Positions 7,550 through 26,038 of a stretch of 48,697 bases of DNA are shown here, one piece after another. Numbering within the stretch: the first letter of the stretch is position 1; each line of letters opens with the position of its first letter. The position numbers and the translations under genes are program-made. The stretch comes from Pontiella desulfatans (GTDB taxonomy: Bacteria > Verrucomicrobiota > Kiritimatiellia > Kiritimatiellales > Pontiellaceae), in contig JARFRL010000178.1 in assembly GCA_029287275.1 (NCBI GenBank), positions 1-48,697 of the forward strand, in the 5' to 3' direction. The notes beneath the pieces were generated by a model that saw only the letters and a list, made by a program, of their open reading frames with translations, made no database searches and had not been told where the DNA came from.

Positions 7550-7756
7550 GGCCCAAGCGTGCCATAAAGGCGCACTTCGCGCAATTCGTTTTTGATCCGT
7601 CATGAATGCGCCAAAACGACGCTTTTTCACACATTGCAATGTATGAAATTATTCATCCGCGGAGATGAATTCTCTTGAAGCTGAATCCAATGAAAAGCCC
7701 GCGCTTGCATGGGTTCGATTCTTGACGAGGTCAGTCGTGTTAATCACACTGTTCTA

Positions 7757-8437
7757 ATGAATAACGAATCCACCCGACCACCCGCGTCGCCCAAGAAATT
7801 TCGATTCTCCGGAAACCATGTCGCCACCGCGGCGATGTTTCTGATCGTTCTTTTCATGTGGCGCGATCTTTCGCGGACGAAAACCGCGGTGGAGAATTCG
7901 CGCGCTCGAAGTCAGGCGCTTGACGCGGAGCTGGCCAACGTCAAATCCGAGTTGACGATGGCGAACCGCCAATTGGATCAGTTTAAGAAGGGCGGGCCGC
8001 CAACGGCCGCGGTCGCCAAAACGGAAAAGCCCGCGCGCGCGATCGCGGAAGCCATCGAAAAACCTGAAACGCTGTTCCTACAGGAACCGGAAGCGCGACA
8101 AACCGAGGACGGTATCGTGGCGCGCTTCGCGTTTGAGCCGGAAAGCGCGGCGCCGTTGCCGGACCGGATCACGCTGGTGGTTCGCGTGCCCAGCGCTTCC
8201 GAAGCCAGAATTCTCTCTTTGGTTCCCGTCGCCGCGGCAAGCGACTCGAACCTCGAAGTCGTGGTCAACGGCAGGGGCAACCTTGGAATGATCGAGGGAT
8301 CCCCCGCCGAACTCGCCGCGCTCGTTTTCGAGGTGACGGTGTCGGAGCCGGTGAAAGCCACCGTTCGCGGGTCGGAAGGAATCAAGGCCTTCGAGATGGA
8401 TATTCGGCCGGACGGGTGCTCGGTTCGGAAGCTTTAG
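7757..8437 (+). CDS. Hypothetical single-pass membrane protein (N-terminal TM, coiled coil, beta-rich C-terminal domain)
   Basis: TM segment VATAAMFLIVLFMW followed by heptad-like LDAELANVKSELTMANRQLDQF. No family recognised. Confidence 0.6.
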   Translation: MNNESTRPPASPKKFRFSGNHVATAAMFLIVLFMWRDLSRTKTAVENSRARSQALDAELANVKSELTMANRQLDQFKKGGPPTAAVAKTEKPARAIAEAIEKPETLFLQEPEARQTEDGIVARFAFEPESAAPLPDRITLVVRVPSASEARILSLVPVAAASDSNLEVVVNGRGNLGMIEGSPAELAALVFEVTVSEPVKATVRGSEGIKAFEMDIRPDGCSVRKL

Positions 8438-8453: not shown

Positions 8454-9419
8454 CTATCGGTCGTACTTGTACAGATGGCAATCGTAGCAGTCGGTCAGGA
8501 CTCCATGGAAGTTGTCGTCGGGCCAATACGGTTCGTGAATCCCGAGCACATCGTTTCCGCCTTCATGGCAAACCACGCAGCCTTCCCCTTCCGAGGCGGA
8601 GGTATGGCAGGAAACACAATGGGTCGGCGTTGTTTTCGAGCCGGGCGAGCTCCACCTTCCCCTGTGCGATCGCGGCCTGGCTTGCGAGTGGCACGACACG
8701 CAGGAGTCCTCTTCGTGGCAGACCACGCAACCCTCGCGGTCCCACGCGGCCATCACGCCGTGCGTTTTCAAGCGCCACAGATTGTTGTGATTCCGAGGCT
8801 GCATGACGCTGTGGCACTCCTTGCAGGAATCTTCCGAATGGCAGACGTTGCACGAGGCGTCGTCTTGCATGCCGAACATGCCGTGGCGCTGTTGCCATAA
8901 CTGGTCGTGGTCGGGCGGCCGCTGATGGCGATCCATATCAACGTGGCACTCGAGACAGTCTCGCCCTGAAGCATGCGCTTCCTCGCGGATTTCAAGAACA
9001 TCCGAACGCCGCGGCGCCGGAACCGAAACCAGCCCCTCGGCCATCAACGCGCCATGGCAATCCTGACATTTTCCCGCCAGCGCCGCGGTATGGACGAACA
9101 CGCTTCTTGTCGGCGCGTTGGTCGCGCTCTTCCAGTCCTTGAGCTCCGGAAGCTGTTTTTCCTGGTGGCAGTAGCCGCAGGTTTCCTGACTGATTTCTTC
9201 CGCCTCCGGCTCGTCGTGACAATCGACGCAGGTTTCATGCGAAAGCGCTTTGAAAGACGGTTCGCCCGGCTCGCCATGACATTCGTCGCACGCCATTTCG
9301 TTTTCCGTCACGTGGAGATGATGACTAAACTTAAGCGCGTATTTTTCCTCGTCGCAGCCTGAAAGAAACAACAGGGCGGCGCTCGCGGCCAGAATCGTGA
9401 TGATGGGTTTGATGTTCAC
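8454..9419 (-). CDS. Dodecaheme c-type cytochrome lipoprotein (ExtA-like component of a porin-cytochrome conduit)
   Basis: GTG start overlapping the porin stop; lipobox LSG-C. Twelve CxxCH motifs: CDECH, CVDCH, CGYCH, CQDCH, CLECH, CNVCH, CKECH, CVVCH, CVSCH, CVSCH, CVVCH, CYDCH. Repeated H-x3-W-x3/4-HG...CxxCH-x4-CxxCH units. The ExtA-like assignment is from recalled architecture, not a search. Confidence 0.9.
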   Translation of the reverse strand: MNIKPIITILAASAALLFLSGCDEEKYALKFSHHLHVTENEMACDECHGEPGEPSFKALSHETCVDCHDEPEAEEISQETCGYCHQEKQLPELKDWKSATNAPTRSVFVHTAALAGKCQDCHGALMAEGLVSVPAPRRSDVLEIREEAHASGRDCLECHVDMDRHQRPPDHDQLWQQRHGMFGMQDDASCNVCHSEDSCKECHSVMQPRNHNNLWRLKTHGVMAAWDREGCVVCHEEDSCVSCHSQARPRSHRGRWSSPGSKTTPTHCVSCHTSASEGEGCVVCHEGGNDVLGIHEPYWPDDNFHGVLTDCYDCHLYKYDR

Positions 9420-10789
9420 AGCCTTACCTCGAATGACGCGCGAACCCGATAGCCGAGATCTTCCTCGTCGCTATCGTCTTCGAGCTCGCCGGAAACGCGC
9501 AGCGCCGTATGTTTTGAGATATTCCATTTGCCGCGCAAAAAATAGGTGAACGCGAACGGAGAACGCTCGACGCGGGTGCCATCCAGATCAACCGTGACGT
9601 CCTCGGCGATCACCGAAAAATCCGAGAACTGGAAATAGGTGTAATCCACGTAGGCGGCGCCGGCCGAAACCTCCCAGAGCCGACCCTGCTTGTAGCGGAT
9701 GTCGCCGCTCACGCCCATGAAGCGGTCGCTTTCCTCGACGTCCCAGTATTCGAGCGCGATCGTGGCGTTGAGCGATTTGTAGGGTTCGAAAATGAAGCTC
9801 ATGTCGTAGCGTTCGTAGCCGCGGTTGGTCGCGTTGGACTCGTCGGGATAGCGCCAATAGGCGCCCGGAGAAAGGTACAGCCAGTCGAGCAGCTGACTGG
9901 TAAATCGGCCGTAGGCGGTGGTGTAGGGTTCCTGATCGCCCAGCGTTTGAACGAGCGGTGAATAGACTCGGGTGCTGGCGTCGTACTCGCCCCAGCGACG
10001 GGCGCCCAACACCGCGTCGAAAACCCGTTCGGAGAGCGACATGTAGTACAGGTCGCCGCCGCCCATGCGCACGTCGTCGTTCATGACCGAGAGGTAGGCG
10101 CGGGCGCGCACGGTCTCCGCCACTTGTTGCCGGACATCGAAGAAGAAGTGGTCGTCCGACTCACCCACGCTGTCGTCATAATACCGCGCGTAGGTTACAC
10201 GAGAGCGGTTGCCGTTCCACGGCTTTCCCACCAGCGACGCGCCGCCGAACAGATCGCCGACAATGGAGGAATAATAGCTCACCGGCTGGCCCGCGAAGAC
10301 GCGGCCGCCGAGTTGCTGGTTTTCAAACAGCATCGCCTGCAAACCATCCATCTGAATGTAGTCGGCGATGTCCACGTATTGCCGACCGGCCCGCAGGAGC
10401 GCCTTTTTCTTTTGATCATGCAGATCGACATAAAACTGAAGCAGTCGATTCCCGCCGTAGCGATCGGTGTCCTCCAAACTAATGAAGGGATCGTCGGCGT
10501 AGGACTCCCCCGCGCCGTCCAAATCGGAATGAAGCCGTCCGGAGGTGTGGAAATCCACGTGCTTGTCGGCCAGATTTCGTCCGCTCAGGATCCAATAGCC
10601 GTAGACGTCGTGATCGGAGTACGGTCCCTGCCCCCGGAAATCGTAGGTACCGCGCAGGCTCCCCGAATAGTCGGCGGTCGAGGCTTTCTTCACCGGCGCG
10701 TCCTCTTCGGCGCGCGCCGGCGCGAAAACAAAAATGAGCCCCGCGGCGATCAGCGTTCCGCGCAGGCTCGTTTGAATGGTTCGCGTCAT
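9416..10789 (-). CDS. Outer-membrane beta-barrel protein (porin of a porin-cytochrome complex)
   Basis: Signal peptide ending ARA. Tyr/Gly/Asp-rich sequence with alternating amphipathic strands and a C-terminal strand YRVRASFEVRL. Sits between two multiheme cytochrome genes. Confidence 0.8.
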   Translation of the reverse strand: MTRTIQTSLRGTLIAAGLIFVFAPARAEEDAPVKKASTADYSGSLRGTYDFRGQGPYSDHDVYGYWILSGRNLADKHVDFHTSGRLHSDLDGAGESYADDPFISLEDTDRYGGNRLLQFYVDLHDQKKKALLRAGRQYVDIADYIQMDGLQAMLFENQQLGGRVFAGQPVSYYSSIVGDLFGGASLVGKPWNGNRSRVTYARYYDDSVGESDDHFFFDVRQQVAETVRARAYLSVMNDDVRMGGGDLYYMSLSERVFDAVLGARRWGEYDASTRVYSPLVQTLGDQEPYTTAYGRFTSQLLDWLYLSPGAYWRYPDESNATNRGYERYDMSFIFEPYKSLNATIALEYWDVEESDRFMGVSGDIRYKQGRLWEVSAGAAYVDYTYFQFSDFSVIAEDVTVDLDGTRVERSPFAFTYFLRGKWNISKHTALRVSGELEDDSDEEDLGYRVRASFEVRL

Positions 10790-10805
10790 CTCGAAGTTCC
10801 AAAGA

Positions 10806-10832
10806 CCGGAACCGGTCAACGACCGGCTCCGG
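10806..10832 (-). terminator. Intergenic stem-loop between the 9-heme cytochrome and the porin (partial terminator or stabiliser)
   Basis: Minus strand CCGGAGCCGGTC-GTT-GACCGGTTCCGG forms a 12-bp stem with one G-U pair, followed by only TCTTT. Confidence 0.5.
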
Positions 10833-10840
10833 GGATTCGA

Positions 10841-13075
10841 TTAGTCTTCGATCGCGCGGTAGAACCGGTTCGTGGTACCGCGCATGGAATCCAGTTCATA
10901 GATCCAATCGCCGGTGCTCTCATGAGCCTCGCCAATGTTGGTCCACGAGCCATCGGTCAGATCGGAGGCCATCTGAATGTTGACGGTGGTTCCGGTTCCC
11001 TTCGGCATATATCCGATTTCCGCCGCGGGCAGCATGATCAGATCGCTGTTTGGCACGCTGGTGATCTCGAGCGGATCGCTGTTGCCCTGCAGTTCGACCA
11101 AGTCAGAGAAGGTGTCTCCATCCGAGTCGGCCTGCTTGGGATGGGTTCCCAGCTTCATCTCGGCCAAGTTGTTGAGCCCGTCCTCATCCCAGTCGTCCGT
11201 GCCGGACTGGCTCGTGATGTCGCCGAAGTTCTCGATTTCCCACGAGTCCACCAGACCGTCGCGGTCGACGTCGATGCCGCCGGTGAGATCGTCGATGGAG
11301 GCGCGGAGGATGGCCGCCGCGTATTTCGGGTTGTGCACCCCGTGGCTGCCGTCTTCCTCGATAAACAGGTAGTTGTACGCGCCCCGCTTCAATTCAAGGG
11401 TATTGAACTGGGAAGACATGGCATACAAATCGACCTCGGGTGATCCATAAGGCGGCAACAGCATGCCCAACTCATACATCAGATGGCCGATTTCGGTCTG
11501 CACGCCCTCGATCAAGCCATCGCGGTTGTAGTCTTCCCCGCCGAAGTCGAAGTCTTCGATCTCGCCGTGGCAGCTCGAGCAGGCCTCTGTCAGATGGATG
11601 ACCGCGTTCGTACCGTCATCGTAGGACAACGTGAAGGAGTGGCCGCCAACCTTGTTTTTGGCGTAATCCGGCAGTCCGGAAGGCGTTTCCTGCATATGGC
11701 ACTCCACACAGGAGTTCTCAACAACGGTCATATGCGTGGAGGAAGGCATTTCCTGGCCATACTCAATGGCGTTCGCCCCAGCCAGCAAATCACCCTGCGG
11801 ACCATGGTGCGGGCCAAAATACTTGCTGGCATTCCCGTATACATAGCTTTCACCGTCGCGGCGCGCCTTATGACAGGACATGCAGACCAGGCCGGCACCG
11901 CCGTCCGTGACCACATCACCGTTGCCCAACTCAACACTCTCGATGGCGCGTGTTTGATGAACGCCGTTGCCCGGACCATGCGGATCGTGGCAGGCCGCGC
12001 AAGTGATGCCTTCCTTGAAGTCGGCCCGCACCGCGACGAACTCGCCGTCCTCGTTCATGCCGGGATCGTTTTCGTCGATGAATCCCGCGGTGGTGTGACA
12101 GGCGGCGCAGGAACCCGAGCGATCCACTTCCGTGCGACCATGCAACGAGGTGCCCCATTCGAAATTTTTCACGTGGTGCGCGACCGCGTCGTGGCACTGG
12201 CCGCAATTGCCCGCGCTCACGCTGATGGAGATCTTGGAGGGATCACCACCCGTGCGCATGTGTTCCTGCGCGGGGCCATGGCAGTTTTCGCACTGCACGT
12301 TGGATTTATTCTGTAGCTCGACCGGCATATCGTCCCAGTTGTTGGTGGCCAACGGCGGGAAGGTCCAACCGAGTTCGGTGGCAATATCGTCGAACCCGTC
12401 ATTAACCGCGCCGGGCGTCGTGTCGTAACCGACCGAGTGGCACTTGATGCAAAAAGAGCGGAAATGGCCTGTCGGATCGTTGATGCTATCCTTCAGCGCC
12501 GCGGAATGGTGCGTCATGTTGAAGTCGTCCTGCTTGCTGGCATGACATAGCGAACAGGCGGAATTCTGACCGATGAAGACCGAACCGACCACTTCGAGCG
12601 TGGCGTCAAGCGTTCCGTTGGTGGTCACGGCTTGCGCTGAAATATAATACGTTCCTTTTACATCGGGAACAATCACGGCGCGATCAATCACGTCGAAAGC
12701 AACCCGATCCACGGAGTCGTAGGTCGGCATGCTCGAGGGCAATGGACTGTTCGTGATGGTCGCGGTGGAGTTTAAGATGGGCTCATCATCCAAATCCAGC
12801 ACTTGATCCAAGTTCCAGACGGCCTGCGTCACGACCGTGCCGGCTTTAACCATCAGCTCGAGATAGACCGGCTGGCCGAGTCCCACGACCGGAGCTCCTC
12901 CGGACGTTTGCGTGGCGCCATCCAGACCATAATCCAGAATTTCCTGCGGCGTGAGCGGCCGAGAGTTGATTTTGACATCCTGCGCCCGAACCTCGGTCGC
13001 GTGTAAGCCAAGGAGGATGGTCGCCGCCATCATGATTCCCCAAGCCCCGAATTTGCTTTTGCTTCGCTTCTTCAT
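10841..13075 (-). CDS. Secreted nonaheme c-type cytochrome with N-terminal PKD/Ig-like region, Ca-binding DxDxDG repeats and a C-terminal 'RFYR' domain
   Basis: Sec signal ending VRA. Nine CxxCH motifs: CSLCH, CIKCH, CENCH, CGQCH, CAACH, CAACH, CMSCH, CVECH, CSSCH. Motifs HHGPQGD, GGHSF and EDGSHGVHNPKYA (resembling the tail of c552/OmcB-type proteins). Repeats DVDRDGLVD, DWDEDGLNN, DSDGDTFSD. Ends TNRFYRAIED. Confidence 0.9.
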   Translation of the reverse strand: MKKRSKSKFGAWGIMMAATILLGLHATEVRAQDVKINSRPLTPQEILDYGLDGATQTSGGAPVVGLGQPVYLELMVKAGTVVTQAVWNLDQVLDLDDEPILNSTATITNSPLPSSMPTYDSVDRVAFDVIDRAVIVPDVKGTYYISAQAVTTNGTLDATLEVVGSVFIGQNSACSLCHASKQDDFNMTHHSAALKDSINDPTGHFRSFCIKCHSVGYDTTPGAVNDGFDDIATELGWTFPPLATNNWDDMPVELQNKSNVQCENCHGPAQEHMRTGGDPSKISISVSAGNCGQCHDAVAHHVKNFEWGTSLHGRTEVDRSGSCAACHTTAGFIDENDPGMNEDGEFVAVRADFKEGITCAACHDPHGPGNGVHQTRAIESVELGNGDVVTDGGAGLVCMSCHKARRDGESYVYGNASKYFGPHHGPQGDLLAGANAIEYGQEMPSSTHMTVVENSCVECHMQETPSGLPDYAKNKVGGHSFTLSYDDGTNAVIHLTEACSSCHGEIEDFDFGGEDYNRDGLIEGVQTEIGHLMYELGMLLPPYGSPEVDLYAMSSQFNTLELKRGAYNYLFIEEDGSHGVHNPKYAAAILRASIDDLTGGIDVDRDGLVDSWEIENFGDITSQSGTDDWDEDGLNNLAEMKLGTHPKQADSDGDTFSDLVELQGNSDPLEITSVPNSDLIMLPAAEIGYMPKGTGTTVNIQMASDLTDGSWTNIGEAHESTGDWIYELDSMRGTTNRFYRAIED

Positions 13076-13141
13076 TTTGACCTCCGTGGCTGACTTTCAG
13101 CCGATCATTAACAACCTACCCTGTCCCTCTTTTTTCCAAAA

Positions 13142-14236
13142 TCAGCTGGCGACCGCGATCGCGGCCTTCGCGCGCGTCTTGTTTCCCGCCGCCCGCCGGC
13201 GCCGGAACTGTTCGAGCAGATTCTCGATTTCCCGCGTGATGATCGCCTCGCAGCGTTCCAAATCGTTTTCCCAGCGGCCCAACGTCTGGTTCACGGACGA
13301 TTCGAGCGCGTCGATATCGCGCAGATGCACGCCCTCGATCAGGCCAACCTCCGGATCCACGTCGCGGGGAACCGCGATGTCAATAATAACCAAAGGCTGG
13401 TCCGGCCGGGCTCGCATGACCGCCTCGACCGCTTCGCGCTGGATCACCGTCTGGGAACTTCCGGTGGAACTGATGACCACGTCGGCGTCGGCCATGGCGG
13501 CGAACATTTCGGAGAACGGCACCGCGGAACCCTTGAACTCGGTGGCGAGCGACTCCGCGCGCTCGAGCGAACGATTGGCCACCACCACGTCGCACTCCCC
13601 CTTTTTCCGAAGGTGGAGCAAACAGCAGGCCGCCATTTCGCCGGCCCCGATCATGAGGACCGAATGTTTCTTCAGTCCGCCGGAACCAAGCGCTTCTTTG
13701 GCGAGCGCGACGGCCTCGCCGCCAACGGAGCGCGCGCCGCGGCCGATTGAGGTTTTTGCGCGAACGGCTTTCGCGGTCCGCAACGCGGTCTGGAAGACAC
13801 TGTTCAGTACTTTCCCAACCAGCTTCGCTTCGCGGGCCGCCTCGTAGGCGTCCTTCACCTGACCGGTGATTTGGGTTTCGCCCAACACCATGGAATCCAG
13901 GCTGCTGGCGACTTTAAAAAGGTGTTTCAGGGCGTCGAGCCCGCAATGGCGGTAGACGTGCGAGGACAGGCTCGGCATTTCGCGGACGAGGCATCCGAAA
14001 ATCGCCTCCAGGTCCGGGTTCCCGCCTTTGGCGACCACGCCGTAGATCTCCACGCGATTGCAGGTCCACAGCACGACCACCTCGGAAAGCCCGGCTTTGA
14101 GTTTGAGAAGGCGGCTTACTTCGATCCGATCCGGATGGGCGATCGCCATGCGTTCTCGAACATGCACCGGAGCCGTGCGGTAGTTGACTCCCGCAACAAA
14201 GAAACCGCTATCCAAGGCATGTTTCGAAGTATTCAT
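13142..14236 (-). CDS. hemA: Glutamyl-tRNA reductase
   Basis: GVNYRTAP, catalytic TCNRVE, SLDSMVLGETQITGQVK, GAGEM and DIAVPRD. At 364 aa the dimerisation domain is short. Confidence 0.93.
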   Translation of the reverse strand: MNTSKHALDSGFFVAGVNYRTAPVHVRERMAIAHPDRIEVSRLLKLKAGLSEVVVLWTCNRVEIYGVVAKGGNPDLEAIFGCLVREMPSLSSHVYRHCGLDALKHLFKVASSLDSMVLGETQITGQVKDAYEAAREAKLVGKVLNSVFQTALRTAKAVRAKTSIGRGARSVGGEAVALAKEALGSGGLKKHSVLMIGAGEMAACCLLHLRKKGECDVVVANRSLERAESLATEFKGSAVPFSEMFAAMADADVVISSTGSSQTVIQREAVEAVMRARPDQPLVIIDIAVPRDVDPEVGLIEGVHLRDIDALESSVNQTLGRWENDLERCEAIITREIENLLEQFRRRRAAGNKTRAKAAIAVAS

Positions 14237-14251
14237 CGTATTATAACCGGA

Positions 14252-14824
14252 TCATTCGGCAGGTCGCTCGTGTTTGATCTTTTCGTAGGCCTGCGCGACG
14301 TCAAATCCTGTTTTCGTTCCGTCCGGCAAGGTGTAGCGGTTCGGATCCCAAGTTGGGCCGGAGTCGTTGTGGCAGAGCACGCAGCTCTTTTCCTTGGCGG
14401 GATAGATCATGCCGCCGGCGATGGACAACTCGCGGCTTTCCATGGTGGATTTCTTTTTGTAGTCGGCTCCGGGGCCATGGCAGGACTCGCAGGACACGCC
14501 GTCTTCAACCGCGACCGCTTCGCTCTGGAGCGTTTCCGTGAAGAAATAGGCGGTGGAGTGGCATTTCAGGCATTGGCCGCTCGTCCGCGGATCGTCGATA
14601 CCCAGCTTCGCGCCGACGGCTTTGGCTTCTTCGCCCGCCAGTATTTCGTAGGCCTTGGCGTGATTCTTTGACATCCAAACGCCATATTGATCGCCCTTGT
14701 CGGCCTTCTTGTGGCACATCGCGCACCTCTTGGTGCCGATCAGTTTGGCGGGATCGCCCGATTGACTCCATCCGGAGGCGATGAACGCGAAGGTTAGCGA
14801 AATACTCAGCATTAATGTCTTCAT
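14252..14824 (-). CDS. Periplasmic tetraheme cytochrome c (cytochrome c554 family)
   Basis: Signal peptide MKTLML...SGWS. Four CxxCH motifs (CAMCH, CLKCH, CESCH, CVLCH). W-x3-HAKA and GVSCESCHGPG c554-type signature. GAGGT upstream of ATG 14824. Confidence 0.88.
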   Translation of the reverse strand: MKTLMLSISLTFAFIASGWSQSGDPAKLIGTKRCAMCHKKADKGDQYGVWMSKNHAKAYEILAGEEAKAVGAKLGIDDPRTSGQCLKCHSTAYFFTETLQSEAVAVEDGVSCESCHGPGADYKKKSTMESRELSIAGGMIYPAKEKSCVLCHNDSGPTWDPNRYTLPDGTKTGFDVAQAYEKIKHERPAE

Positions 14825-14918
14825 ATCTAATTTCCACCTCGTTAACCCATCCAGCCGAACCAAACCTACCTGATTGCGATGGTCACATTTAAATCATCAC
14901 ATCGACCCTGTTGCCAGA

Positions 14919-14942
14919 ATAAAAGACCCAGACCTCTAATTT
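14919..14942. promoter_or_regulatory. Candidate Rrf2 operator, copy 1
   Basis: ATAAAAGAC-N6-CTCTAATTT upstream of the c554-type gene. Resembles the copies at 15600 and 15640. Confidence 0.3.
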
Positions 14943-15093
14943 GTATTTAGTCTATTTAACCTAGGAGTAGAACAAAAGATGAGGAGGAGGCAAGGCGTGA
15001 ATCAATAAATGCATATAGTTGTTCTTTAGTACTATATGGAATATTCGCCCATTTCAGGGCGACGAAAAGCGGCCGGATTCACACTCCGGGCGC

Positions 15094-15531
15094 TTAGCCG
15101 TTAGAATGAAGCGCGGCCGGATGGTTTTTTTGAGTTTCAAGCACGTCCGAAAGCTTGACGCGCTCCAGCTCCCGCTTGATCTGTTCACGGTTTTTTATCC
15201 AGAATTTGTGCGCGGGGCATTCGTACTCGTTGCCACAGGAGTCCAAACCAAACAAACAATTACCCAGAAACGCGTCGCCTTCCAGCGCGACGCTGATATC
15301 CAGCAGGCTGATCAACTTCGCGGGGCGAGCCAGCCAAACGCCCCCTCCCGCGCCGCGTTTGGATTCGATAATCCCCGTGTTATTAAGCTTTTTGACAATT
15401 TTCGCCAAATAGGGCCGGGGAACGCCGGAACACTCCGCCAAGTCCTTGACGCTCACCGGCGGGCTCGCGTGACCGGCCAGACACGTCAAGGCCCGAACCG
15501 CGTGGCCGGTGGTCTGGGATAGTGACATCAT
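15094..15531 (-). CDS. Rrf2 family transcriptional regulator with candidate Fe-S ligands
   Basis: wHTH YLAKIVKKL...IIESKRGAGGGVWLAR and C-terminal CLFGLDSCGNEYECPAH (3 Cys + His). Confidence 0.92.
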   Translation of the reverse strand: MMSLSQTTGHAVRALTCLAGHASPPVSVKDLAECSGVPRPYLAKIVKKLNNTGIIESKRGAGGGVWLARPAKLISLLDISVALEGDAFLGNCLFGLDSCGNEYECPAHKFWIKNREQIKRELERVKLSDVLETQKNHPAALHSNG

Positions 15532-15599
15532 ATCGTAGCTCCTTCTTCAAGTCTCGCTAAGCGCAAGGTATCATGCCTGGCCGGGCGCGCCAAGATTTA

Positions 15600-15663
15600 A
15601 TAGAAGACATTAATATCTACAATCTATTCGGACATGGTTTAAACAAACCCCGCGGTCTCTATT
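15600..15663. promoter_or_regulatory. Candidate Rrf2 operators, copies 2 and 3, in the divergent rrf2/imcH-like promoter region
   Basis: ATAGAAGAC-ATTAAT-ATCTACAAT (15600-15623) and TAAACAAAC-CCCGCG-GTCTCTATT (15640-15663), both imperfect 9-6-9 inverted repeats. A TTGACT -35-like hexamer follows at 15668. Confidence 0.35.
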
Positions 15664-15768
15664 CTCCTTGACTATAGCTATCTCCCTACTCATCTTTCAT
15701 GAGAACCATCCACGAAACAGTCTTAACGTGAACGAGATATCCACACTAGGCCAAATGCTGGAGAGCAC

Positions 15769-17253
15769 ATGACCCAACCCTTGGAGAGGCGGAACTTGAC
15801 GCACAACCTCATCAGCCTGCTTGGCATGGTGATGGCCGCGTTCGGATTCATCGTTGGCGCCACGCTGATTTATGTCGATATGCAACACCACTTCGACAAT
15901 CCCTACACCGGCCTGTTCACCTACCTGGTCGTACCCGCCATCCTCGCGGGCGGACTGCTGCTCATTCTGATTGGCGCCATCGTGGAAAAAAAACGGCGCG
16001 CGCGCCAAGGAACCGAGACCTCGCGCCTCCCGGTCATCAACCTCAACGAGACGCGGCAATTCAGGGTCTTTCTGGCCGTCGTCGTCACGACCTTGCTGTT
16101 CATCGCGATCAGCGTGGTCGGCGGATACCGCGCCTACCACTTCACCGAGTCGGTCGAATTCTGCGGAAAAACCTGCCATAGCGTCATGAAGCCGGAATAC
16201 ACGGCCTATCAGAATTCCCCGCACGCCAACGCGGGCTGCACCAAATGCCATATCGGTCCGGGCGCGGACTTTTTCGTGAAGGCCAAAATCAACGGCCTTT
16301 ACCAAGTCTATTCCACGATGTTCAACAAATACAACCGGCCCATCCCCGCGCCGGTGCACAACCTGCGGCCCGCCAAGGAAACCTGCTACACCTGCCACTG
16401 GCCCGAAAAGTTTTTCGGCGCGACCGAGCTCAAACGCACCTACTTCCGCGCCGACGAAGAGAACAGCCCTTGGACCATTCAGATGCTCATGAACGTGGGC
16501 GGAGGAAACGCGTCCAAAAACGGCGCCAAAGGCATTCACTGGCACATGGCGTCCGACGTGAAAATCGAATACATCGCGGCCGACGAGAAACGGCTGGAGA
16601 TCCCCTGGGTGCGCTTGACCGGCGCGGACGGCGTTCCGACCGTCTTCCAAACCGCCGGCGAAGAACTCACGGACGAACAGGTCGCGGCCGCGGAAATCCG
16701 GACCATGGACTGCATCGACTGCCACAACCGGCCCACCCACCAATTCCACTCGCCGGAACGCGCGCTGAACGACGCGCTCACCAGCGGAGAGCTCGATTCC
16801 GCGCTGCCGGAAATCAAGCTCAACGGCATCGACGTGCTGACGGGTGAATACGAAACCGAAGGCGAAGCCCTTAGGGCGATCGACGCCAAGCTGACCGCCG
16901 CCTATCCCGACGCGGGCGAGGCGCTGGAAAAGGCCATCTCCGCCATCCAAACCATCTACGCGCGGAATATTTTCCCCGAAATGAAAGTCAGCTGGGAGGG
17001 CTACCCCGACCACATCGGCCACATGATCACGCCGGGTTGCTTCCGCTGTCACAACGGGGATCATGAAAACGAGCAAGGCCGCGTCATTACCCGCGATTGC
17101 GCCTCGTGCCACAGCATCATCGCCCAAGGACCGGGCGTGGACGTCACGAGCGTCAACACGGGAGGGCTGGAATTTAAACACCCTGAGGACATCGATGAAG
17201 AATGGAAAGAAACCCGCTGCGATGACTGCCACACCGGTGTCCCCGTCATGTAA
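15769..17253 (+). CDS. imcH: ImcH-like inner-membrane NapC/NirT-family heptaheme cytochrome c (quinol dehydrogenase)
   Basis: Three N-terminal TM helices (NPYTGLFTYL...), then TESVEFCGKTCH (CX3CH) and six CxxCH motifs (CTKCH, CYTCH, CIDCH, CFRCH, CASCH, CDDCH). Also GIHWH and NIFPEMKVSW..YPDHIGH. Size and 3TM/7-heme layout match Geobacter ImcH as I recall it. Confidence 0.82.
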   Translation: MTQPLERRNLTHNLISLLGMVMAAFGFIVGATLIYVDMQHHFDNPYTGLFTYLVVPAILAGGLLLILIGAIVEKKRRARQGTETSRLPVINLNETRQFRVFLAVVVTTLLFIAISVVGGYRAYHFTESVEFCGKTCHSVMKPEYTAYQNSPHANAGCTKCHIGPGADFFVKAKINGLYQVYSTMFNKYNRPIPAPVHNLRPAKETCYTCHWPEKFFGATELKRTYFRADEENSPWTIQMLMNVGGGNASKNGAKGIHWHMASDVKIEYIAADEKRLEIPWVRLTGADGVPTVFQTAGEELTDEQVAAAEIRTMDCIDCHNRPTHQFHSPERALNDALTSGELDSALPEIKLNGIDVLTGEYETEGEALRAIDAKLTAAYPDAGEALEKAISAIQTIYARNIFPEMKVSWEGYPDHIGHMITPGCFRCHNGDHENEQGRVITRDCASCHSIIAQGPGVDVTSVNTGGLEFKHPEDIDEEWKETRCDDCHTGVPVM

Positions 17254-19162
17254 GCCACTCCTCCCGCTCATTCTAGGCGTCGCCGCCTTCTGGCTGGCGC
17301 TCGCGCCCGCGAACGCGGTTGAAATCAAAAATTCCGAATGCCTGGAGTGCCACGGCGAGGAGGACGCGGAGCCGTTCATCAACGGCCATCTGTTCGAGGG
17401 ATCCGTTCACGCCGACAACCAATGCGTCAGTTGTCATAGCGACATCACGGAGGCCATGCACGACACCCCGTTGAAAAAAGTCGACTGCTCCGAGTGCCAC
17501 GACATCGAGTCGGAAATCTATCTTCAAAGCTCGCATGGACAGGCGTTGCGCAAGGGGCGCGACCAAGCCGCCACCTGCAAAGACTGCCACGGCGACGCCC
17601 ACCGAATCGTATACTCGAAAAACCCGGAATCCCCCATAAACCGCGGCAACATCGCCAATACCTGCGCGCGCTGCCACGGCGACGTGGAGGAGATGAAAAA
17701 GTTCAACCTGCATCAGCTCGCGCCCATCGACAGCTACGAACACAGCGTCCACGGCCTCGCCAATCAGAACGACGGCTCGTTTGCCGCCACCTGCACCGAC
17801 TGCCACGGCTCGCACAACCTGCTGAAATCGACCAACCCAGAGTCAAAGCTCTACTGGCGGAACATTCCCAACACCTGCGGAAAATGCCATGAAAACATCG
17901 CGCGGACCTTTTCTCGCAGCGTCCACGGCGAAGCCGTCGCGGAAGGCGTCAAAGACGCGCCCACCTGCACCGACTGCCACGGCGAGCACGAGATCGCCGC
18001 CGTCGCGTCCGCGGACTCCAAGGTCTCGTCCGCGAATATTTCCGAAACCTGCGCGTCCTGCCACGCCGCGGAACGCATCGTCACCAAATACCGTTTGCCC
18101 AAGTTCGCCGTTGAAACCTACATGGACAGCTACCACGGCCTCTCCATGCGCCTCGGCTCGGTCACCGCGGCCAACTGCTCCTCCTGCCACGGCAAACACG
18201 ACATTCTGCCCTCGTCCGACCCGCGCTCCTCCATCCATCCCGAAAACCTGCGAAAAACCTGTAGCGTCTGCCACGCCGGCGTGACCGATCTGGTGGCGCG
18301 GGGGCAGATTCACTCCGGCACGCGGCCAGGCATGCAGAAAACCGCCAGTTCCGTCGTGCGCAACATCTACGTCATCCTCTTCCTCGTCGTGCTCGGCGGC
18401 ATGCTCTTCCACAACGCGCTCGACCTCTTCCACAAACTCCGCGAGCACTTCAAAAAGCTCAAGGCATCCGAAGGCGGCCCCCATCGGATGACCGTGAACG
18501 AGCGGATCCAGCACGCGATTCTCGCGACGACGTTCATCGTCCTCGGCTACACCGGCTTCGCGCTGGTCAACCCCGACGCCTGGTGGGCGCGGCCCTTCGT
18601 CGGGAACACCTACGACTTCCGCGGGTACGGTCATCGCCTGATGGCGATCCTGTTCATAGGGCTGAGCGTCTACCATTTCGGCTACGTGTGCTTCACCAAA
18701 CGCGGCCGCTGGCAGATCAAGCAACTCGCGCCGCGCTGGTCCGACTTCGTTCACTTCGGGCAGATGATCGGCTTCTACATGGGCCTCCGCAAGGAACGCG
18801 CCCGCTTCGAGCACTACAGCTACATCGAAAAGGCCGAATACTGGGCGCTCGTCTGGGGCTCCGTCATCATGGTGCTCACCGGCGCGCTGATGACCTTCAA
18901 CACCTGGACGCTGGCCCACTTCCCGAAATGGTTCCTCGATGTCTGCATCGCGATCCACTACTACGAAGCCATTCTCGCCTGCGCCGCGATCATCATCTGG
19001 CACTTTTACTTCGTCATGTTCGATCCCGAGGAATATCCCGTCAAATGGACCTTCATCTCCGGACGCGAAGGCCCGTCGGACAAGGAGCGCCTCAGTCCCG
19101 AGGAAAGCACCATCGGCAAAAAGAAAGAGAAGAAAGCCGCCCAAAAGGAGACCCGCGAATGA
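17195..19162 (+). CDS. cbcL: CbcL-like bc-type cytochrome: 11-heme periplasmic c domain fused to a diheme cytochrome b membrane domain
   Basis: Signal peptide ending ANA. Eleven CxxCH motifs (CLECH through CSVCH) with repeated S-V-H-G units. FdnI/HydC-like cytochrome b helices ERIQH, GHRLMA, KAEYWALVWG, IHYYEAILA...WHFY. Start set at ATG 17195 (GAGGA upstream); 17222 is an alternative. Confidence 0.8.
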   Translation: MKNGKKPAAMTATPVSPSCKPLLPLILGVAAFWLALAPANAVEIKNSECLECHGEEDAEPFINGHLFEGSVHADNQCVSCHSDITEAMHDTPLKKVDCSECHDIESEIYLQSSHGQALRKGRDQAATCKDCHGDAHRIVYSKNPESPINRGNIANTCARCHGDVEEMKKFNLHQLAPIDSYEHSVHGLANQNDGSFAATCTDCHGSHNLLKSTNPESKLYWRNIPNTCGKCHENIARTFSRSVHGEAVAEGVKDAPTCTDCHGEHEIAAVASADSKVSSANISETCASCHAAERIVTKYRLPKFAVETYMDSYHGLSMRLGSVTAANCSSCHGKHDILPSSDPRSSIHPENLRKTCSVCHAGVTDLVARGQIHSGTRPGMQKTASSVVRNIYVILFLVVLGGMLFHNALDLFHKLREHFKKLKASEGGPHRMTVNERIQHAILATTFIVLGYTGFALVNPDAWWARPFVGNTYDFRGYGHRLMAILFIGLSVYHFGYVCFTKRGRWQIKQLAPRWSDFVHFGQMIGFYMGLRKERARFEHYSYIEKAEYWALVWGSVIMVLTGALMTFNTWTLAHFPKWFLDVCIAIHYYEAILACAAIIIWHFYFVMFDPEEYPVKWTFISGREGPSDKERLSPEESTIGKKKEKKAAQKETRE

Positions 19163-19848: not shown

Positions 19849-19871
19849 GGAAACCACCCCCGCGCCCTAAC

Positions 19872-20675
19872 TCATGGCGCGTAGCGGATTCGGTAGAAGC
19901 GGTTTGACGCCGTCACTCCGCCCACCTCCACCGCGTTGGTGGAGAAGAGTCCCACCCCCGCGATATCGATCGCGGAGCCGACGTCGGAAAAGGGCTCCGA
20001 CAGACTGGAAGTCGACTGCAGCATATCGCGCCGTCCGCCGACCGTGTCCCAAACGATCCGAACGTCGCCGCCTTCCAGCGCGAGCGTGGAAATCAGATAG
20101 GGAGGCCCACAGTCGAAGTCGGCCAGGTCGTAGAGATTGTCCCCGTCGTTATCCAGCCCCACGAAATCACCAATCGACCAGTTTTCGTTCATATTCGCGG
20201 TAAACACATCGTTACACGGATTATCCGCCAGCGTGCCGGATGTTCCATAATAGGGCGGCTTCACGTTTTCCGCGGGAGGAGTTTCGGGGTCATGACACTC
20301 GGCCGTGTAGCAGGTCGGAATACCATTCGCGGCGTGATGAGCGCGCAATCCCGATCCAACATGGCAACCCGCGCAATTCGAAAGAAACGGGTCGTCTCCG
20401 GGAGTGTTGTGACACAGCGAGCAGTCCGTGTTCATGTAATCTTTGTTCCGATGCATTTCATGTTTACTGTCCGAGGGAAAGACCGTGCCTTTGAAGCTGG
20501 CCGGTCCATCAAAATCGCCGTGGCACGTTTTACAGCCGTCCGTATACAGTTCGTACCCAAAGCTCGCGTGGCAAACGGCCATCGCGAAGATGACCATCCA
20601 ATTAACCATACCCCTTTTAAGAACATCCGCGCTCATCGTCTGATTTCCTGTTGGTTTCGTCTTCATATTTTCCAT
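19872..20675 (-). CDS. Small secreted multiheme cytochrome c (3 CxxCH + 1 CX4CH) with a DxDxD Ca-binding loop and a C-terminal 'RFYR' domain
   Basis: CKTCH, CSLCH, CAGCH and CYTAECH; GLDNDGDNLYD; tail LQSTSSLSEPF...SNRFYRIRYAP. Start uncertain (20675, 20636 or 20609). Confidence 0.8.
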   Translation of the reverse strand: MENMKTKPTGNQTMSADVLKRGMVNWMVIFAMAVCHASFGYELYTDGCKTCHGDFDGPASFKGTVFPSDSKHEMHRNKDYMNTDCSLCHNTPGDDPFLSNCAGCHVGSGLRAHHAANGIPTCYTAECHDPETPPAENVKPPYYGTSGTLADNPCNDVFTANMNENWSIGDFVGLDNDGDNLYDLADFDCGPPYLISTLALEGGDVRIVWDTVGGRRDMLQSTSSLSEPFSDVGSAIDIAGVGLFSTNAVEVGGVTASNRFYRIRYAP

Positions 20676-21129
20676 TTAAACGACAGGCCAATCTCGACGT
20701 TCAGCAAAGCCGCGCGGGAAAACCGCCTGTTAGGCTCAAACTATGCTTTTACAGCGTGAGCGCAATGATCATTTCACTCATGTCTCAAGCGGGATTCCGT
20801 CTACGCAAGCGACACCTAACCGCTCAACCATAAGCACTTACACCCTCCACAAGACGCAAGAAGCACGCCATGACATTAAAAAACCATCGAAGGCCGGATC
20901 AGGCGGAATAAAGGACCACGACCGCTTGCGGGCCAGCCTTTTAGCGACTTTTCTAGTGCTTGAAAGATGGAAAGCCGGCGCGCGCCGCGCGGTTTTCCGC
21001 GGCCCATTGTACTTGTTCTCCCGCTTTGGTTAAGGCAAGTTTCGCTTTCACCAAGGGTTTTTTTGGAATACGTCGAGGGGCGCCATTTTTTCCCTCGTTC
21101 AAACGCATCGCCCCTGCTTCAGGATACGT

Positions 21130-22518: not shown

Positions 22519-22763
22519 TCAAGCCGACCCTTTAGAGCAACGACTGAGATGCCGTTGTAATACCAGTTTCTAAAAACTTCTCAGACTAAATTTAATGGAA
22601 ACCACAAAATACTCAGGGATCGCAAAATAGGGCAATTGCTGTTCTTTTGTGATCTATGTGAATTTTGTGGTTTAGCACCATTAACGCCTAAATGTTTTTG
22701 AGAGGGGGTTGAAAACCTTCCAGCCCCGCCACTAGAGCCCGGGCAGCGCGTTAGTGAACGATG

Positions 22764-24521
22764 CTAGCGGCCGCTTCTCCAAACCTTGACGGGAATCAGG
22801 CCGGCGAAAATCACCACGAGCTGCGAGGCCACGAACACCAGCAACCAGAAGGTGGCGGACGAGGTGAAGCCGTAGGAGTGCAGGCCGACGCTCAGCTGAT
22901 TGACGCCGAACCACGACCACGCCGTGACGATGTTGCCGGTGACGGCCATGACCGCGAAGCCGCGGCTTCCGACCATCTTGCCGTACTTGGCGTGCAGCAT
23001 GATCGCGTTCCAGATCACGATCAAAAGCGCGCCGTTTTCCTTCGGATCCCACCCCCAGAAGCGGCCCCAGGAGTCGTCGGCCCAAAGACCGCCGAGAACG
23101 GTGCCGACGAAGCTGAGCAACAGCGCGAAGCAGGCGGTGCCGTACATCATGCGAAACATGTTGTCGCGGGTCGCCTCGTCCACCCGACGGGTCAACAGCC
23201 CCGCGAGAATGTAAAAGACGCCGATCGTGCCGGCCACGAAGGTGGCCATGTAGCCGAGCGTCACGGTGATCACGTGGGTCGCCAGCCAGAAACGGGTGTC
23301 GAGCACGGCGCGCATCTGCTCCATCGTGTCGCCGTCACCCGCGAGGAAATGGGCGACCAGCAGCGTGGTGAAGCCCGCGATGCCGCCGACGAGATTGCCC
23401 ATGCCTTCGGCCTTGCGGTAGACCAGCTCCAGAACAATGCCGGCGAGCACGGCCGCCCAGCCGATGAAGATGGCGGAGGAATACAGATTGGTGACGGGCG
23501 GATAGCCGGATAGAAACACGCGGGCGATGATCGCGAAGGTGTGCGGAATGAACGCGCAGATCATCAGCGCGAGGCCCGCGCTGATCGGGCCGCGTTTACG
23601 CGCCAACCAGCCGAAGCAGCTGAGCACGAACACGAGCAGGTAAAGCTGGGCCGATTTCATGAACGCGCCGAGGCGGTTGTAGAAGGTTTCAAACGGCATT
23701 TTTTCAAGCACCGCGGGGTTTTCGCGTTGGAGCGACGCGTTGTATTCGTTGAGCGTGTCGTTGAACCGCGCGACGTCCCCGTCGCGATAGGCGCTCAACA
23801 TGACGCCGAACTTCACGGCCATCGCGTCGGGCGGGCCAACGTTGCCCATGCTTTTCATGGCCGGGTGGTTGGCCAGCAACGCGCTCATCAGCGGTCGCCA
23901 TTTGGAATTCCCCGCGTTGGGGGGAACCGCCAGCGGGATGGAATATTTCCCTAGGCTCATGTAGCGCTGGGCGGTGGACATCAACTGCTCCGACGGGATC
24001 GCGGTCGGATCCTCGAAGGACGACATGACGTTCTGGTAGAGATAGAACTTGTTGGCCACTTTGATGACCTGCTTGTCGTACAGATCGCGCTGTTTTTCAT
24101 TCTTGGCGTAAGCGGAGCGCGACGCGGCGTCGAGGTTTCCAATGCGCGGCAGAATCTCGCGGAAGGAATAGCGGAAGCGCTTGCGCTCCTCGAGGCCGAG
24201 GCTGGAGAGCACGTCCATGTTCTCGACGCGGAAGACCTGGTAGTCCAACGCCTCGGGCCGTCCGGAAATGTTGTCGAGGAACCACTGGGTCGCGGAAACC
24301 CGCTCGCCTTCGTGATAGACCGACTGCTTGTCCGATAGAATCGTGAGGAAGTTGCGCGCCAGCGTGTCGATCGGCTTTTCGCGTCCTTCGTATTTAACCG
24401 GCAGCTGCCCGAAGGCGGTGACCTGGAAATCGGTTTCGCTTTCCTTCGGCGGCCGAACGCCGCTCTGGAAAAACCAGACCGCGAACAACACGACCACCCC
24501 GTTGATGATGATTTTTTTCAT
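22764..24521 (-). CDS. ccsA: Cytochrome c biogenesis System II protein CcsA/ResC with a large N-terminal periplasmic domain
   Basis: WWD motif WADDSWGRFWGWDPKE, WLATHV, PPVTNLYSS, GLHSYG. Start overlaps the resB stop codon. Confidence 0.93.
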   Translation of the reverse strand: MKKIIINGVVVLFAVWFFQSGVRPPKESETDFQVTAFGQLPVKYEGREKPIDTLARNFLTILSDKQSVYHEGERVSATQWFLDNISGRPEALDYQVFRVENMDVLSSLGLEERKRFRYSFREILPRIGNLDAASRSAYAKNEKQRDLYDKQVIKVANKFYLYQNVMSSFEDPTAIPSEQLMSTAQRYMSLGKYSIPLAVPPNAGNSKWRPLMSALLANHPAMKSMGNVGPPDAMAVKFGVMLSAYRDGDVARFNDTLNEYNASLQRENPAVLEKMPFETFYNRLGAFMKSAQLYLLVFVLSCFGWLARKRGPISAGLALMICAFIPHTFAIIARVFLSGYPPVTNLYSSAIFIGWAAVLAGIVLELVYRKAEGMGNLVGGIAGFTTLLVAHFLAGDGDTMEQMRAVLDTRFWLATHVITVTLGYMATFVAGTIGVFYILAGLLTRRVDEATRDNMFRMMYGTACFALLLSFVGTVLGGLWADDSWGRFWGWDPKENGALLIVIWNAIMLHAKYGKMVGSRGFAVMAVTGNIVTAWSWFGVNQLSVGLHSYGFTSSATFWLLVFVASQLVVIFAGLIPVKVWRSGR

Positions 24522-25942
24522 CAGGCGTCGCTCCTTTGATACCGCCGAAGCGACTGAATGAACTGCGCGGCCATGCCCACGAAAACGATCATGCACGCGA
24601 GGTACGGGATCATCCAACTGTCGTTGCGAACCACCTGAAGCACCGTGCCGCTGTCATCGGGCAGATAGCCGGACTGATAGAAGGTGCGCCGCGCGTAGCG
24701 CAGTGGATTGTTCATCCAGATGCGCAGTTCGCGGTTCACGTCGTCGCCCTCGTTCACGAGCAGGATCTGGCTGGCGAAGTCCTTGGGCATCTGCGTGCCT
24801 TCGTATTTCTCATGCACGAAATCGAGCAGCTGAATCGAAAAGGGACTGCCGCTCGGCGAGGTTAGATATTCCCTGCGGAAGCGGAGATAGACCTCGTATT
24901 GTTTGCCGCCCAAATTGATCCGCGTGGGCATGTCCCACGAACGGTTCACGAAGTTGGGGTACATCCATAGGCTGAGGAGGTAACGACCGCGCGATTCACC
25001 GGTTGAACGATCAACCAGCTCGACGTCGACCGCGGGCGCGTTCATGGCGCCGGTCGCGCCACTCACTTCGGGCAGTTCGGCCATGTAGAGCCGCGCTCCG
25101 TAGCCCTCGTACGCGGGATAGCCGCGGCGGGCGCTTTCGGGCACGGAGTCCAGTGGCCGCGGCCGGTTGGAATTCACGAAATAGCGATTCACTTTCACGT
25201 CGAACGGAAGTTGGTCCGCGGAGATGACGGCGCCTTCCTTGAGGCTGCGCTGGGGCAACACCGTTACCGTGTCGCGGTCGGGATTCGAGACCTCGGTGAA
25301 CGCGATTTCCAGTTGCTGGGAGTGGTCGATGTAGTTGACCGTCTCGCCTTCCTTAATGGTCATGCGGGCCTCGACCGCGTACATGGCCGTCATGAACTCG
25401 CCCACCATCAGAAACAGAATGCCCCCGTGCAACAACACCATGCCGGCGCGTTTGCGATAGAGCAGCACGCAGGCGATGTAGAAAACGACCGCCGCGAGGG
25501 TGCCGCGCCCCAAACGGAGGAAAACCCGCCAAAACGCGTCGCTGTCCGTGGCCGCGACCGAAGCCGTTCCCCAGCCGAACATGACGCCCATGGTGACGAG
25601 CACGCCGAGCAGAAGCACCAAGATGCCGGCGATGCGCCGCGCCCCGTTGACCTGAATTTTAAAACTCGCCCAATGCACCGTGATCAGATTGACCACCAGC
25701 AGCCAGCCAATCAAAAAACCGCCCGGGAAGGGAATCCGGATGTTCGGCACGTCCCAACCGCGGGGGAAGAAAACGGGGAGATCGATCCATGCGATCAGGC
25801 AGCGGAAATATTGATCCACCACCGTCCAGATGCCTTTGTCGACCTGCGCGAGGGTGCCCGCGAAAACCAGCACCATGCTCAACGCGAGCAACGTGATCGT
25901 CAGTTTCAGCGAGAGGAAAAAATTAGTGATTTTTTTCAGCAT
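24521..25942 (-). CDS. resB: Cytochrome c biogenesis System II protein ResB/CcsB
   Basis: FLSLKLTITLL...GTLAQ, G..LLHGG, PFSIQLLDF...YEGT..PKDFAS, IWMNNPLRY...FYQSG, C-terminal TM helix. Confidence 0.88.
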   Translation of the reverse strand: MLKKITNFFLSLKLTITLLALSMVLVFAGTLAQVDKGIWTVVDQYFRCLIAWIDLPVFFPRGWDVPNIRIPFPGGFLIGWLLVVNLITVHWASFKIQVNGARRIAGILVLLLGVLVTMGVMFGWGTASVAATDSDAFWRVFLRLGRGTLAAVVFYIACVLLYRKRAGMVLLHGGILFLMVGEFMTAMYAVEARMTIKEGETVNYIDHSQQLEIAFTEVSNPDRDTVTVLPQRSLKEGAVISADQLPFDVKVNRYFVNSNRPRPLDSVPESARRGYPAYEGYGARLYMAELPEVSGATGAMNAPAVDVELVDRSTGESRGRYLLSLWMYPNFVNRSWDMPTRINLGGKQYEVYLRFRREYLTSPSGSPFSIQLLDFVHEKYEGTQMPKDFASQILLVNEGDDVNRELRIWMNNPLRYARRTFYQSGYLPDDSGTVLQVVRNDSWMIPYLACMIVFVGMAAQFIQSLRRYQRSDA

Positions 25943-26038
25943 GATTCCTTTTCCCGGGAAAGCAACTAGACCTCGTCGACGCGGCAACGTTCAATATTCA
26001 CGGCTATTTCACCGATAATCGGTCATTAGCCGGGTCGA

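Follow-up and report, generated by a model that had tools for sequence, protein, structure and literature searches.

A C-terminal FN3-like module on two Pontiella cytochromes as a candidate surface-sorting device of Verrucomicrobiota

Whether two unlike cytochromes of Pontiella desulfatans share a signal for the cell surface is the question raised by a 48,697-nucleotide stretch of DNA (contig JARFRL010000178.1, positions 1 to 48,697; hereafter the window), in which an earlier note had read their similar tails as an export or anchoring signal of an undescribed secretion route. Verrucomicrobiota play a major part in breaking down complex polysaccharides, and extracellular electron transfer is suspected in them as well. 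In the literature searched, we found no account of how the phylum brings its large enzymes and its cytochromes to the cell surface. Here, we confirmed that both cytochromes end in one uncatalogued module of ~70 amino acids (aa), the FYR tail, which is very probably a surface-sorting device of some kind, be it a tag for the type II secretion machinery (T2SS), an anchor or the signal of a dedicated translocon. The source genome (G000) comprised 2.87 Mb and was 94.6% complete. A 16S search of this assembly found none, and the lineage was read from the nearest named homologues of the window proteins, which came from Pontiella, Kiritimatiellales (60–71% identity).

The first cytochrome, P0001 (744 aa; whole gene at 10841..13075, reverse strand), carried a signal peptide with a Sec-type N-terminus and neither a lipobox nor a transmembrane (TM) helix. 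Its cargo, an N-terminal domain plus a nine-heme cytochrome related to OcwA and OmhA (residues 35–598; 11282..12973, reverse strand; 9 CXXCH motifs), was followed by an acidic, TSP3-like linker (residues 599–676; 11048..11281, reverse strand; TSP3_bac match under the cut-off) with DxDxD motifs at residues 602, 628 and 650, which presumably binds Ca. A Pfam match to the binary-toxin Ca-binding repeat, also under the cut-off, mapped to this linker and does not point to a toxin. The terminal module (residues 677–744; ~10844–11047, reverse strand; predicted FN3 strands A-B-C-C'-E-F, no G) ran a little past the span of 10841..11040 previously given and ended in NRFYR followed by 4 residues. The second cytochrome, P0002 (267 aa; 19872..20675, reverse strand), contained 3 CXXCH and 1 CX4CH motifs, a single DxDxD at residue 175 (20139–20153) and a terminal module (residues 192–267; 19875..20102, reverse strand) in which NRFYR was followed by 5 residues. 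The shared layout of DxDxD linker and beta-rich tail that the earlier note had described was thus found in both proteins; the Sec-type signal that it had assigned to both was clear in P0001 and plausible in P0002, whose translation start is not certain, the Atlas entry for it beginning at residue 14.

Compared with each other alone, the two tails shared 17–22% identity, with a local alignment score of 42 that was equalled by 5 of 2000 shuffles. A profile made from only these two tails, as had been suggested as a check, lacked the strength to find the family, which was recovered instead from 11 other tails of G000: the profile iterated from these, with the window tails held out, found the latter at E = 0.011 and 0.044 among 23,469 open reading frames (ORFs), the best reversed decoy scoring E = 1.2. 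No other ORF of the window matched the family profile, in keeping with the earlier observation that no other protein in the window ends in this way. Across 73 copies, FYR was conserved at 76, 83 and 71%, respectively, and the preceding positions held N in 23% and R in 42%, such that the identical N-R in both window tails was partly luck. None of the 73 copies matched a Pfam or NCBIfam family, and an Atlas search returned 30 clusters without a name, those listed being mostly from Verrucomicrobiota. No description of the module was found in the literature searched (subscription papers and supplements lay outside this scope and could mention it), and sorting domains are not mentioned in the accessible part of 10.1101/2025.05.29.656830.

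In G000, the 73-row profile gave 36 matches at E < 0.05, a number that is a census rather than a test, most copies being in the profile. Thirty of these finished ≤ 10 residues before the stop codon; the remainder comprised one match at a contig end, three directly after a signal peptide, one internal copy and one small lipoprotein. The cargo included S8, M4, C25 and trypsin-like proteases, GH16 enzymes, sulfatases and BspA repeats/adhesins; a cytochrome c peroxidase was among it too, as was a third multiheme cytochrome. These are classic exoprotein types. Of the 21 carriers whose 5' end was complete, 18 satisfied a loose signal-peptide rule, against a background of 806 in 2240; a hydrophobic N-terminal stretch could be made out by eye in the remaining three, and none of the 21 showed a lipobox or a TM helix after the signal peptide. 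When all closed G000 ORFs of ≥ 350 aa were instead picked for exoprotein-like composition alone, with one threshold set once, 21 of 29 ended in the module; the ends of the other eight were two autotransporter-like barrels, one other barrel, one PEP-CTERM, two complete FN3 domains and two that were unexplained. Seven PEP-CTERM-like proteins were present in G000 overall.

Some individual module-bearing loci of this genome were also recorded. Two near-identical short genes (L017:25-1236; contig C488) encoded a signal peptide, the module and a poly-proline tail with no cargo; a gingipain/PorU-like C25 peptidase with a propeptide had the module at its end (L015:1-3654; contig C166); and a carrier at the end of contig C48 (L007:1-1803) overlapped in sequence with the start of a fragment on contig C38 (L011), the two probably being one gene split by the assembly.

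The P0002 copy, folded by AlphaFold2 on an alignment of 73 rows, gave a model with a predicted local distance difference test score of 87 and five clear strands plus a short C'. Foldseek with this model returned nothing at E ≤ 0.001; in a wide structural search most of the top 50 rows were FN3 domains, with a best Z of 7.6 (root-mean-square deviation, rmsd, 2.2; 67 residues aligned), which is middling. Residues 1–76 of the model covered residues 8–78 of 96 in 3mpc, 6–75 of 90 in 7jgu and 4–76 of 93 in 4lpu, that is, strands A–F only; the protein terminates where strand G would begin, and tandem copies are joined by short Pro-rich linkers only. The module is accordingly modelled as a predicted FN3 fold without strand G, and the two window tails, as the earlier note had anticipated, shared this one predicted fold. 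Pfam fn3 matched 0 of 73 copies, and profile matches to FN3 structures were weak (E 0.16–0.31). Besides F-Y-R in strand F, the conserved positions were a Tyr in the C strand (90%), a Leu in the C-C' loop (95%) and a Trp or Phe in C' (97%). The proposed comparison with the C-terminal domain (CTD) of the type IX secretion machinery (T9SS) gave no profile match, and no such CTD appeared among the 50 fold rows listed, which does not exclude a fold of that kind.

A search of 1.84 billion representatives yielded 25,952 module matches (~26,000 protein clusters), a count somewhat inflated by a few best matches that were ordinary FN3-repeat proteins; the profile cross-matched true FN3 repeats in P0026, P0027, P0042 and P0059. 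Among the best 150 matches, all multi-copy, the last copy lay ≤ 10 residues from the C-terminus in 138, and among separate single-search homologues the module ended ≤ 3 residues from the C-terminus in 56 of 56, both sets being biased by a mostly C-terminal query. Tandem arrays reached nine copies with a period of mostly 75–84 aa. The module was found in 71 of 151 Verrucomicrobiota genomes, including 43 of 49 of its own class besides G000, and was missing from whole families (f22, 0/24; f29, 0/14); the highest load was 81 matches in one Verrucomicrobiales genome, and in Fibrobacterota two of 61 genomes had one match each. The module is lineage-restricted and sporadic within the phylum. The earlier statement that many secreted proteins of this phylum have such tails was borne out by these counts and by the 36 matches in G000, and the expectation that the tail would always be C-terminal, on unrelated cargo with signal peptides, held for the unrelated signal-peptide cargo but not for the position, given three N-terminal or stand-alone copies, one internal copy, the module-only lipoprotein and the arrays elsewhere.

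On both window cargoes the module was retained closely, in 116 of 119 nearest P0001 homologues (one further tail was partial and two were degenerate) and in 115 of the 120 P0002 homologues listed out of 209. More distant homologues were collected with the P0001 alignment in a metagenome scan, which gave 76 loci from the best 80 of 302 confirmed stretches. The shared nine-heme cargo ended at about residue 598 and alternative C-terminal modules began there: 26 loci ended in the module (25 by hidden Markov model, one degenerate), 17 carried the T9SS type A CTD after the cargo (12 directly, five behind extra domains), one had a tryptophan-rich repeat, three had other uncatalogued terminal domains of two kinds, one had a TM anchor, 20 had nothing and eight were truncated or frameshifted. 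We take the two other kinds of terminal domain to be ones that also occur in Thermoanaerobaculia proteins. All 17 T9SS-tagged homologues scored over the TIGR04183 cut-off, and none of them also matched the module profile. In a cargo-only FastTree (root not inferred; 12 database proteins added; the eight truncated or frameshifted loci L113, L127, L131, L136, L138, L139, L149 and L154 left out), module-bearing rows formed one clade (Shimodaira–Hasegawa support 95) whose nearest outgroups were T9SS-tagged and within which lay nine tail-less rows and the tryptophan-repeat row. The exchange between T9SS CTD and module on this cargo amounts to about one event, plus one loss and one further replacement. 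Since relatives of this cargo in other bacteria bear a T9SS CTD where P0001 bears the module, the latter likely does the job of the T9SS tag; being carried by ~30 unrelated proteins with signal peptides in G000, it is likely a portable surface label of Verrucomicrobiota.

Other occupants of this slot were also observed. The nine nested homologues (L096, L099–L102, L104, L105, L110 and L112) stopped right after the cargo without a module or lipobox, possibly reflecting transfer to a host without the sorting system. An uncatalogued tryptophan-rich C-terminal repeat replaced the module independently on both window cargoes (L098:1081-3495 and, among the P0002 exceptions, P0435) and had no match better than E 0.15 in G000. 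Three further uncatalogued C-terminal domains occupied the slot (on L155:3224-6376, L167:101-3280 and L164:814-4017 and on the P0002 homologue P0431), hinting at other lineage-specific sorting domains.

The reading we favour, tentatively and at somewhat less than an even chance, is that the module is a portable export tag read by the resident T2SS. Cargo would cross the inner membrane through Sec, for which signal peptides were seen; hemes would then be attached, and cargo and module would fold in the periplasm, the maturation genes being present in the window. Recognition of the folded module would most probably involve two conserved parts, the C-C' loop (S-x-N/D-L...W) and the terminal F strand (F-Y-R), the edge of which would be open because strand G is missing. 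At the weakest step, the cargo would pass the GspD secretin, whose gene is present, and the OcwA-like nine-heme terminal reductase would finally sit on the outside of a conduit made of the barrel and the 12-heme cytochrome, encoded in the same gene cluster, for putative extracellular electron transfer.

This case draws on the availability of a T2SS, on concordance within one family and on precedent. G000 encoded seven secretins, one of which was GspD over the cut-off, and GspD (E ≤ 1e-60) was present in 69 of 71 module-positive genomes; the two negatives were G036, whose sequence is not complete, and G084, which has a single weak module match. In family f28, the only genome of 15 with GspD was also the only module-rich one. 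PorV gave three matches of 24 bits against a cut-off of 90 in this 94.6% complete genome, its control being positive in Bacteroides; one of the three was TraF_2 by Pfam and the other two resembled FadL-type barrels. SprA gave no match in G000, but its control matched nowhere either, making this result uninformative. As to precedent, the accessible part of PMC7949064 reports a key T2SS signal in the C-C' loop of the Fn3 domain of Pel3/PelI, and that of 10.1101/2023.06.07.544157 reports that GlyGly- and MYXO-CTERM cargo require the T2SS; Pel3 was among the top fold matches of the module (Z 6.7–7.3, rmsd 2.1, 65–68 residues aligned).

Several observations weigh against a tag read by the T2SS. GspD was found in 117 of 151 genomes, including most module-negative ones (19 of 24 in f22 and 10 of 14 in f29, with no modules), so its co-occurrence with the module discriminates little. 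No module-specific gene was found in T2SS loci when 20 module-rich and 20 module-free genomes were compared, and a module gene lay near the T2SS locus in 4 of 20, about chance. N-terminal, internal and tandem copies (up to nine) are unneeded by a one-off export signal, and with fold Z-scores that are middling (≤ 7.6) Pel3 does not stand out from other FN3 domains as a match. The swap with the T9SS CTD represents about one evolutionary event on one cargo and not many independent ones, no T9SS-tagged P0002 homologue was found among the 120 listed of 209, and 20 of 76 cargo homologues lacked any terminal module, nine of them nested in the module-bearing clade. T2SS signals known so far are composite, species-specific and not portable, according to the accessible part of PMC7949064. 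As a separate observation, tandem pairs of divergent Amuc_1098-like secretins were conserved in Kiritimatiellales (L210, G000 C22:752-4180; L256–L261; L264); a pairing of a carrier gene with these secretins was considered and rejected, as a module gene lay directly upstream in only two of eight loci.

The copies that burden a one-off signal would suit a non-covalent surface anchor, by which cargo would exit through the T2SS by features of its own and the module would bind a polymer of the envelope, an S-layer or some protein of the outer membrane, an arrangement that we consider possible though rather unlikely. Choline-binding and dockerin modules are models for such anchoring. Arrays of 2–9 copies with a 75–84 aa period suggest avidity, and the module serves at either end of a protein, with three copies directly after a signal peptide. 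On each window cargo it was replaced once by the tryptophan-rich repeat (L098, P0435), which resembles a binding module; there is a conserved lipoprotein made up of nothing but the module, and carriers lack any other anchor. However, the C-terminal position (56/56 and 138/150, from the query-biased sets above) is stricter than most anchors show, and the main counterpart on the same cargo, the T9SS CTD, is a proven export signal.

The lineage-restricted and sporadic distribution (71/151 genomes; f22 0/24, f29 0/14; Fibrobacterota 2/61), the end of the fold after strand F at the C-terminus and the swap with the T9SS CTD would also be expected of a signal for a dedicated, undescribed outer-membrane translocon, perhaps with a receptor that lends strand G, much as chaperones donate a strand to pilins in donor-strand complementation; we consider this improbable. 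A candidate component was a two-gene unit, gene X followed by the module-only lipoprotein (L209/L227, G000 C120:3251-4357; L228–L252), which was single-copy and syntenic in 12 of 12 loci. Gene X encoded a signal peptide, an uncatalogued ~140-aa alpha/beta domain and an acidic Pro-rich tail, and was modelled as an alpha/beta fold of a generic kind for which no clear match emerged (best Z 6.2); the lipoprotein was small and basic and consisted solely of the FN3-like module. Gene X occurred in 37 of 50 genomes of its own class, Kiritimatiellia, within which the unit tracked module abundance (median 23.5 copies, against 1 without X); a search of the 151 genomes did not detect it in the families f6, f14 and f19, which are poor in modules, or beyond the class. 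That it was not found in module-rich genomes outside the class or in G083 (11 copies), and is present in G003 (0 copies), counts against the translocon, and, having been found in its own class only, it was rejected as a universal receptor. The 31 barrel-like candidates (13 of them scanned against Pfam) included none that stood out as a large barrel without explanation, carrier genes had no conserved neighbours beyond cytochrome-cluster genes, and the tandem repeats abut without a G strand, so that the six-stranded unit seems self-sufficient.

That the module is an ordinary accessory domain (a spacer, folding aid or carbohydrate/mineral binder) expanded in this lineage with no sorting role is very unlikely: the FN3-like fold is a common accessory fold, the profile cross-matches true FN3 repeats (P0026, P0027, P0042, P0059) and many cargo homologues have no module, but the near-strict terminal position, the near-complete retention in orthologues, the functionally unrelated cargo including cytochromes and the way in which module and T9SS CTD exclude each other on one cargo all speak against it. 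The earlier inference of a sorting signal gained support from cargo diversity, lineage restriction, the one shared predicted fold and T9SS CTD replacement; its undescribed route did not, as none was found and an ordinary T2SS was present in almost all carrier genomes. The broadest proposal, that a phylum-wide FN3 secretion tag lacking strand G stands in for the T9SS CTD, is read by strand addition at the F edge by the T2SS or an undescribed translocon and would place OcwA-like reductases and most polysaccharide-degrading enzymes at the surface, we put just short of an even chance.

Within the window, P0001 belonged to a cluster of electron-transfer genes. Directly downstream of its gene was a predicted outer-membrane beta-barrel of 467 aa (9416..10819, reverse strand), which had no sequence match in Pfam, NCBIfam or the PDB and whose structural neighbours in the Atlas were outer-membrane barrels (TM-scores 0.79–0.82), followed by a 12-heme c7-type cytochrome with a lipobox-like LSGC (8454..9419, reverse strand), the likely periplasmic partner of the barrel. 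This order of genes was kept in seven other loci (L077–L081, L084 and L093), with barrel only in the truncated L085. From predicted locations, nine-heme cytochrome, barrel and 12-heme lipoprotein likely form a porin-cytochrome conduit. The same gene cluster contained a tetraheme c554-like cytochrome (14252..14863, reverse strand), an inner-membrane quinol-oxidising pair consisting of a NapC/NirT-type six-heme protein and an 11-heme/cytochrome b protein (15769..19162, forward strand), and cytochrome c maturation genes, CcsA-like and ResB-like (22764..25987, reverse strand). Between members of this locus lay genes that we take to be HemA-like and Rrf2-like. The region 8454–26638 is a complete candidate extracellular electron transfer locus, conserved in the Pontiella relatives L076–L081; an uncatalogued membrane-anchored protein (7709–8437), convergent with the 12-heme gene, was conserved in five Pontiella relatives.

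The best solved relatives of the P0001 profile were 6I5B (E 1.7e-20) and 6QVM (E 6.5e-10), which PMC9250108, in the part available, identifies as OcwA and OmhA, respectively. OcwA and P0001 have nine hemes each, with profile matches that were piecewise. OcwA is a cell-surface terminal reductase according to the title of PMC6703420, and OmhA was sheared off the cell surface according to the accessible part of PMC7829351; the papers listed make no mention of SLH domains in OmhA. From the kinship with OcwA and OmhA, the neighbouring barrel and 12-heme genes and the likeness to Verrucomicrobial clusters of porins and multiheme cytochromes (MHC), we infer that P0001 is the outward-facing member of the porin-cytochrome cluster. 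The barrel gene was not seen beside T9SS-tagged nine-heme homologues within the flanks examined. Other module-bearing nine-heme genes (L095, L107, L114, L117, L125, L130 and L150) had a seven-heme DmsE-like cytochrome close by, together with another set of conserved genes, a context suggesting that conduits of more than one type partner the outer cytochrome, and two nine-heme paralogues stood in tandem at L082:5905-10405.

New in this analysis are the T9SS slot swap, the link to OcwA, the negative machinery tests and the gene X/lipoprotein unit. With up to 81 matches per genome, the module would allow the surface proteome of Verrucomicrobiota to be read from genomes, and it would mark the outward-facing cytochrome of a porin-cytochrome cluster. 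If the T2SS does read the module, this would be the first portable T2SS tag, and substrate recognition by the T2SS, a long-open question, would become testable by a simple reporter fusion.

Set against known systems, the nine-heme cargo was related by profile to OcwA (6I5B) and OmhA (6QVM), whose hosts, unlike Pontiella, are Gram-positive. Verrucomicrobial porin-MHC clusters, some with an extracellular MHC, are described by He et al. (PMC5615132), in the accessible part of which the periplasmic partners have 8 hemes, whereas the lipoprotein found here has 12, and neither 'secretion' nor 'C-terminal' is mentioned. PEP-CTERM, GlyGly-CTERM and MYXO-CTERM are likewise C-terminal homology domains of which one kind serves many unrelated exported proteins, but they consist of a motif, a TM helix and a basic tail and are cut by membrane proteases, whereas the module is predicted to be a soluble, folded beta domain without a TM helix. 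The Fn3 domains of the T2SS substrates Pel3 and PelI resemble the module in having an FN3 fold joined to an enzyme, and the most conserved residue of the module, Leu, falls in the loop equivalent to the C-C' loop that is their secretion determinant (PMC7949064, accessible part). The Pel3 domain is, however, seven-stranded, N-terminal, restricted to a single group of enzymes and just one component of a composite signal, whereas the module is predicted to be six-stranded, is mostly C-terminal and is found on dozens of cargoes per genome.

A close parallel was the T9SS type A CTD (TIGR04183/PF18962), which, like the module as predicted, is a beta-sandwich of 70–80 aa, sits at the very C-terminal end of numerous unrelated proteins exported by Sec in each genome and, on the nine-heme cargo, fills the slot that the module takes. 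By profile the two were distinct: none of the 73 module copies matched the CTD at E ≤ 0.1, and in the positive control all 17 true CTDs scored over the cut-off. The CTD is a seven-stranded Ig-like 3+4 sandwich, according to the accessible part of PMC11285876, whereas the module is predicted to comprise FN3 strands A–F; its host has no PorV over the cut-off, and the module also occurs N-terminally and in tandem arrays. Taken together, the module appears to act like a T9SS CTD and yet, judged by profile, not to be a member of that family.

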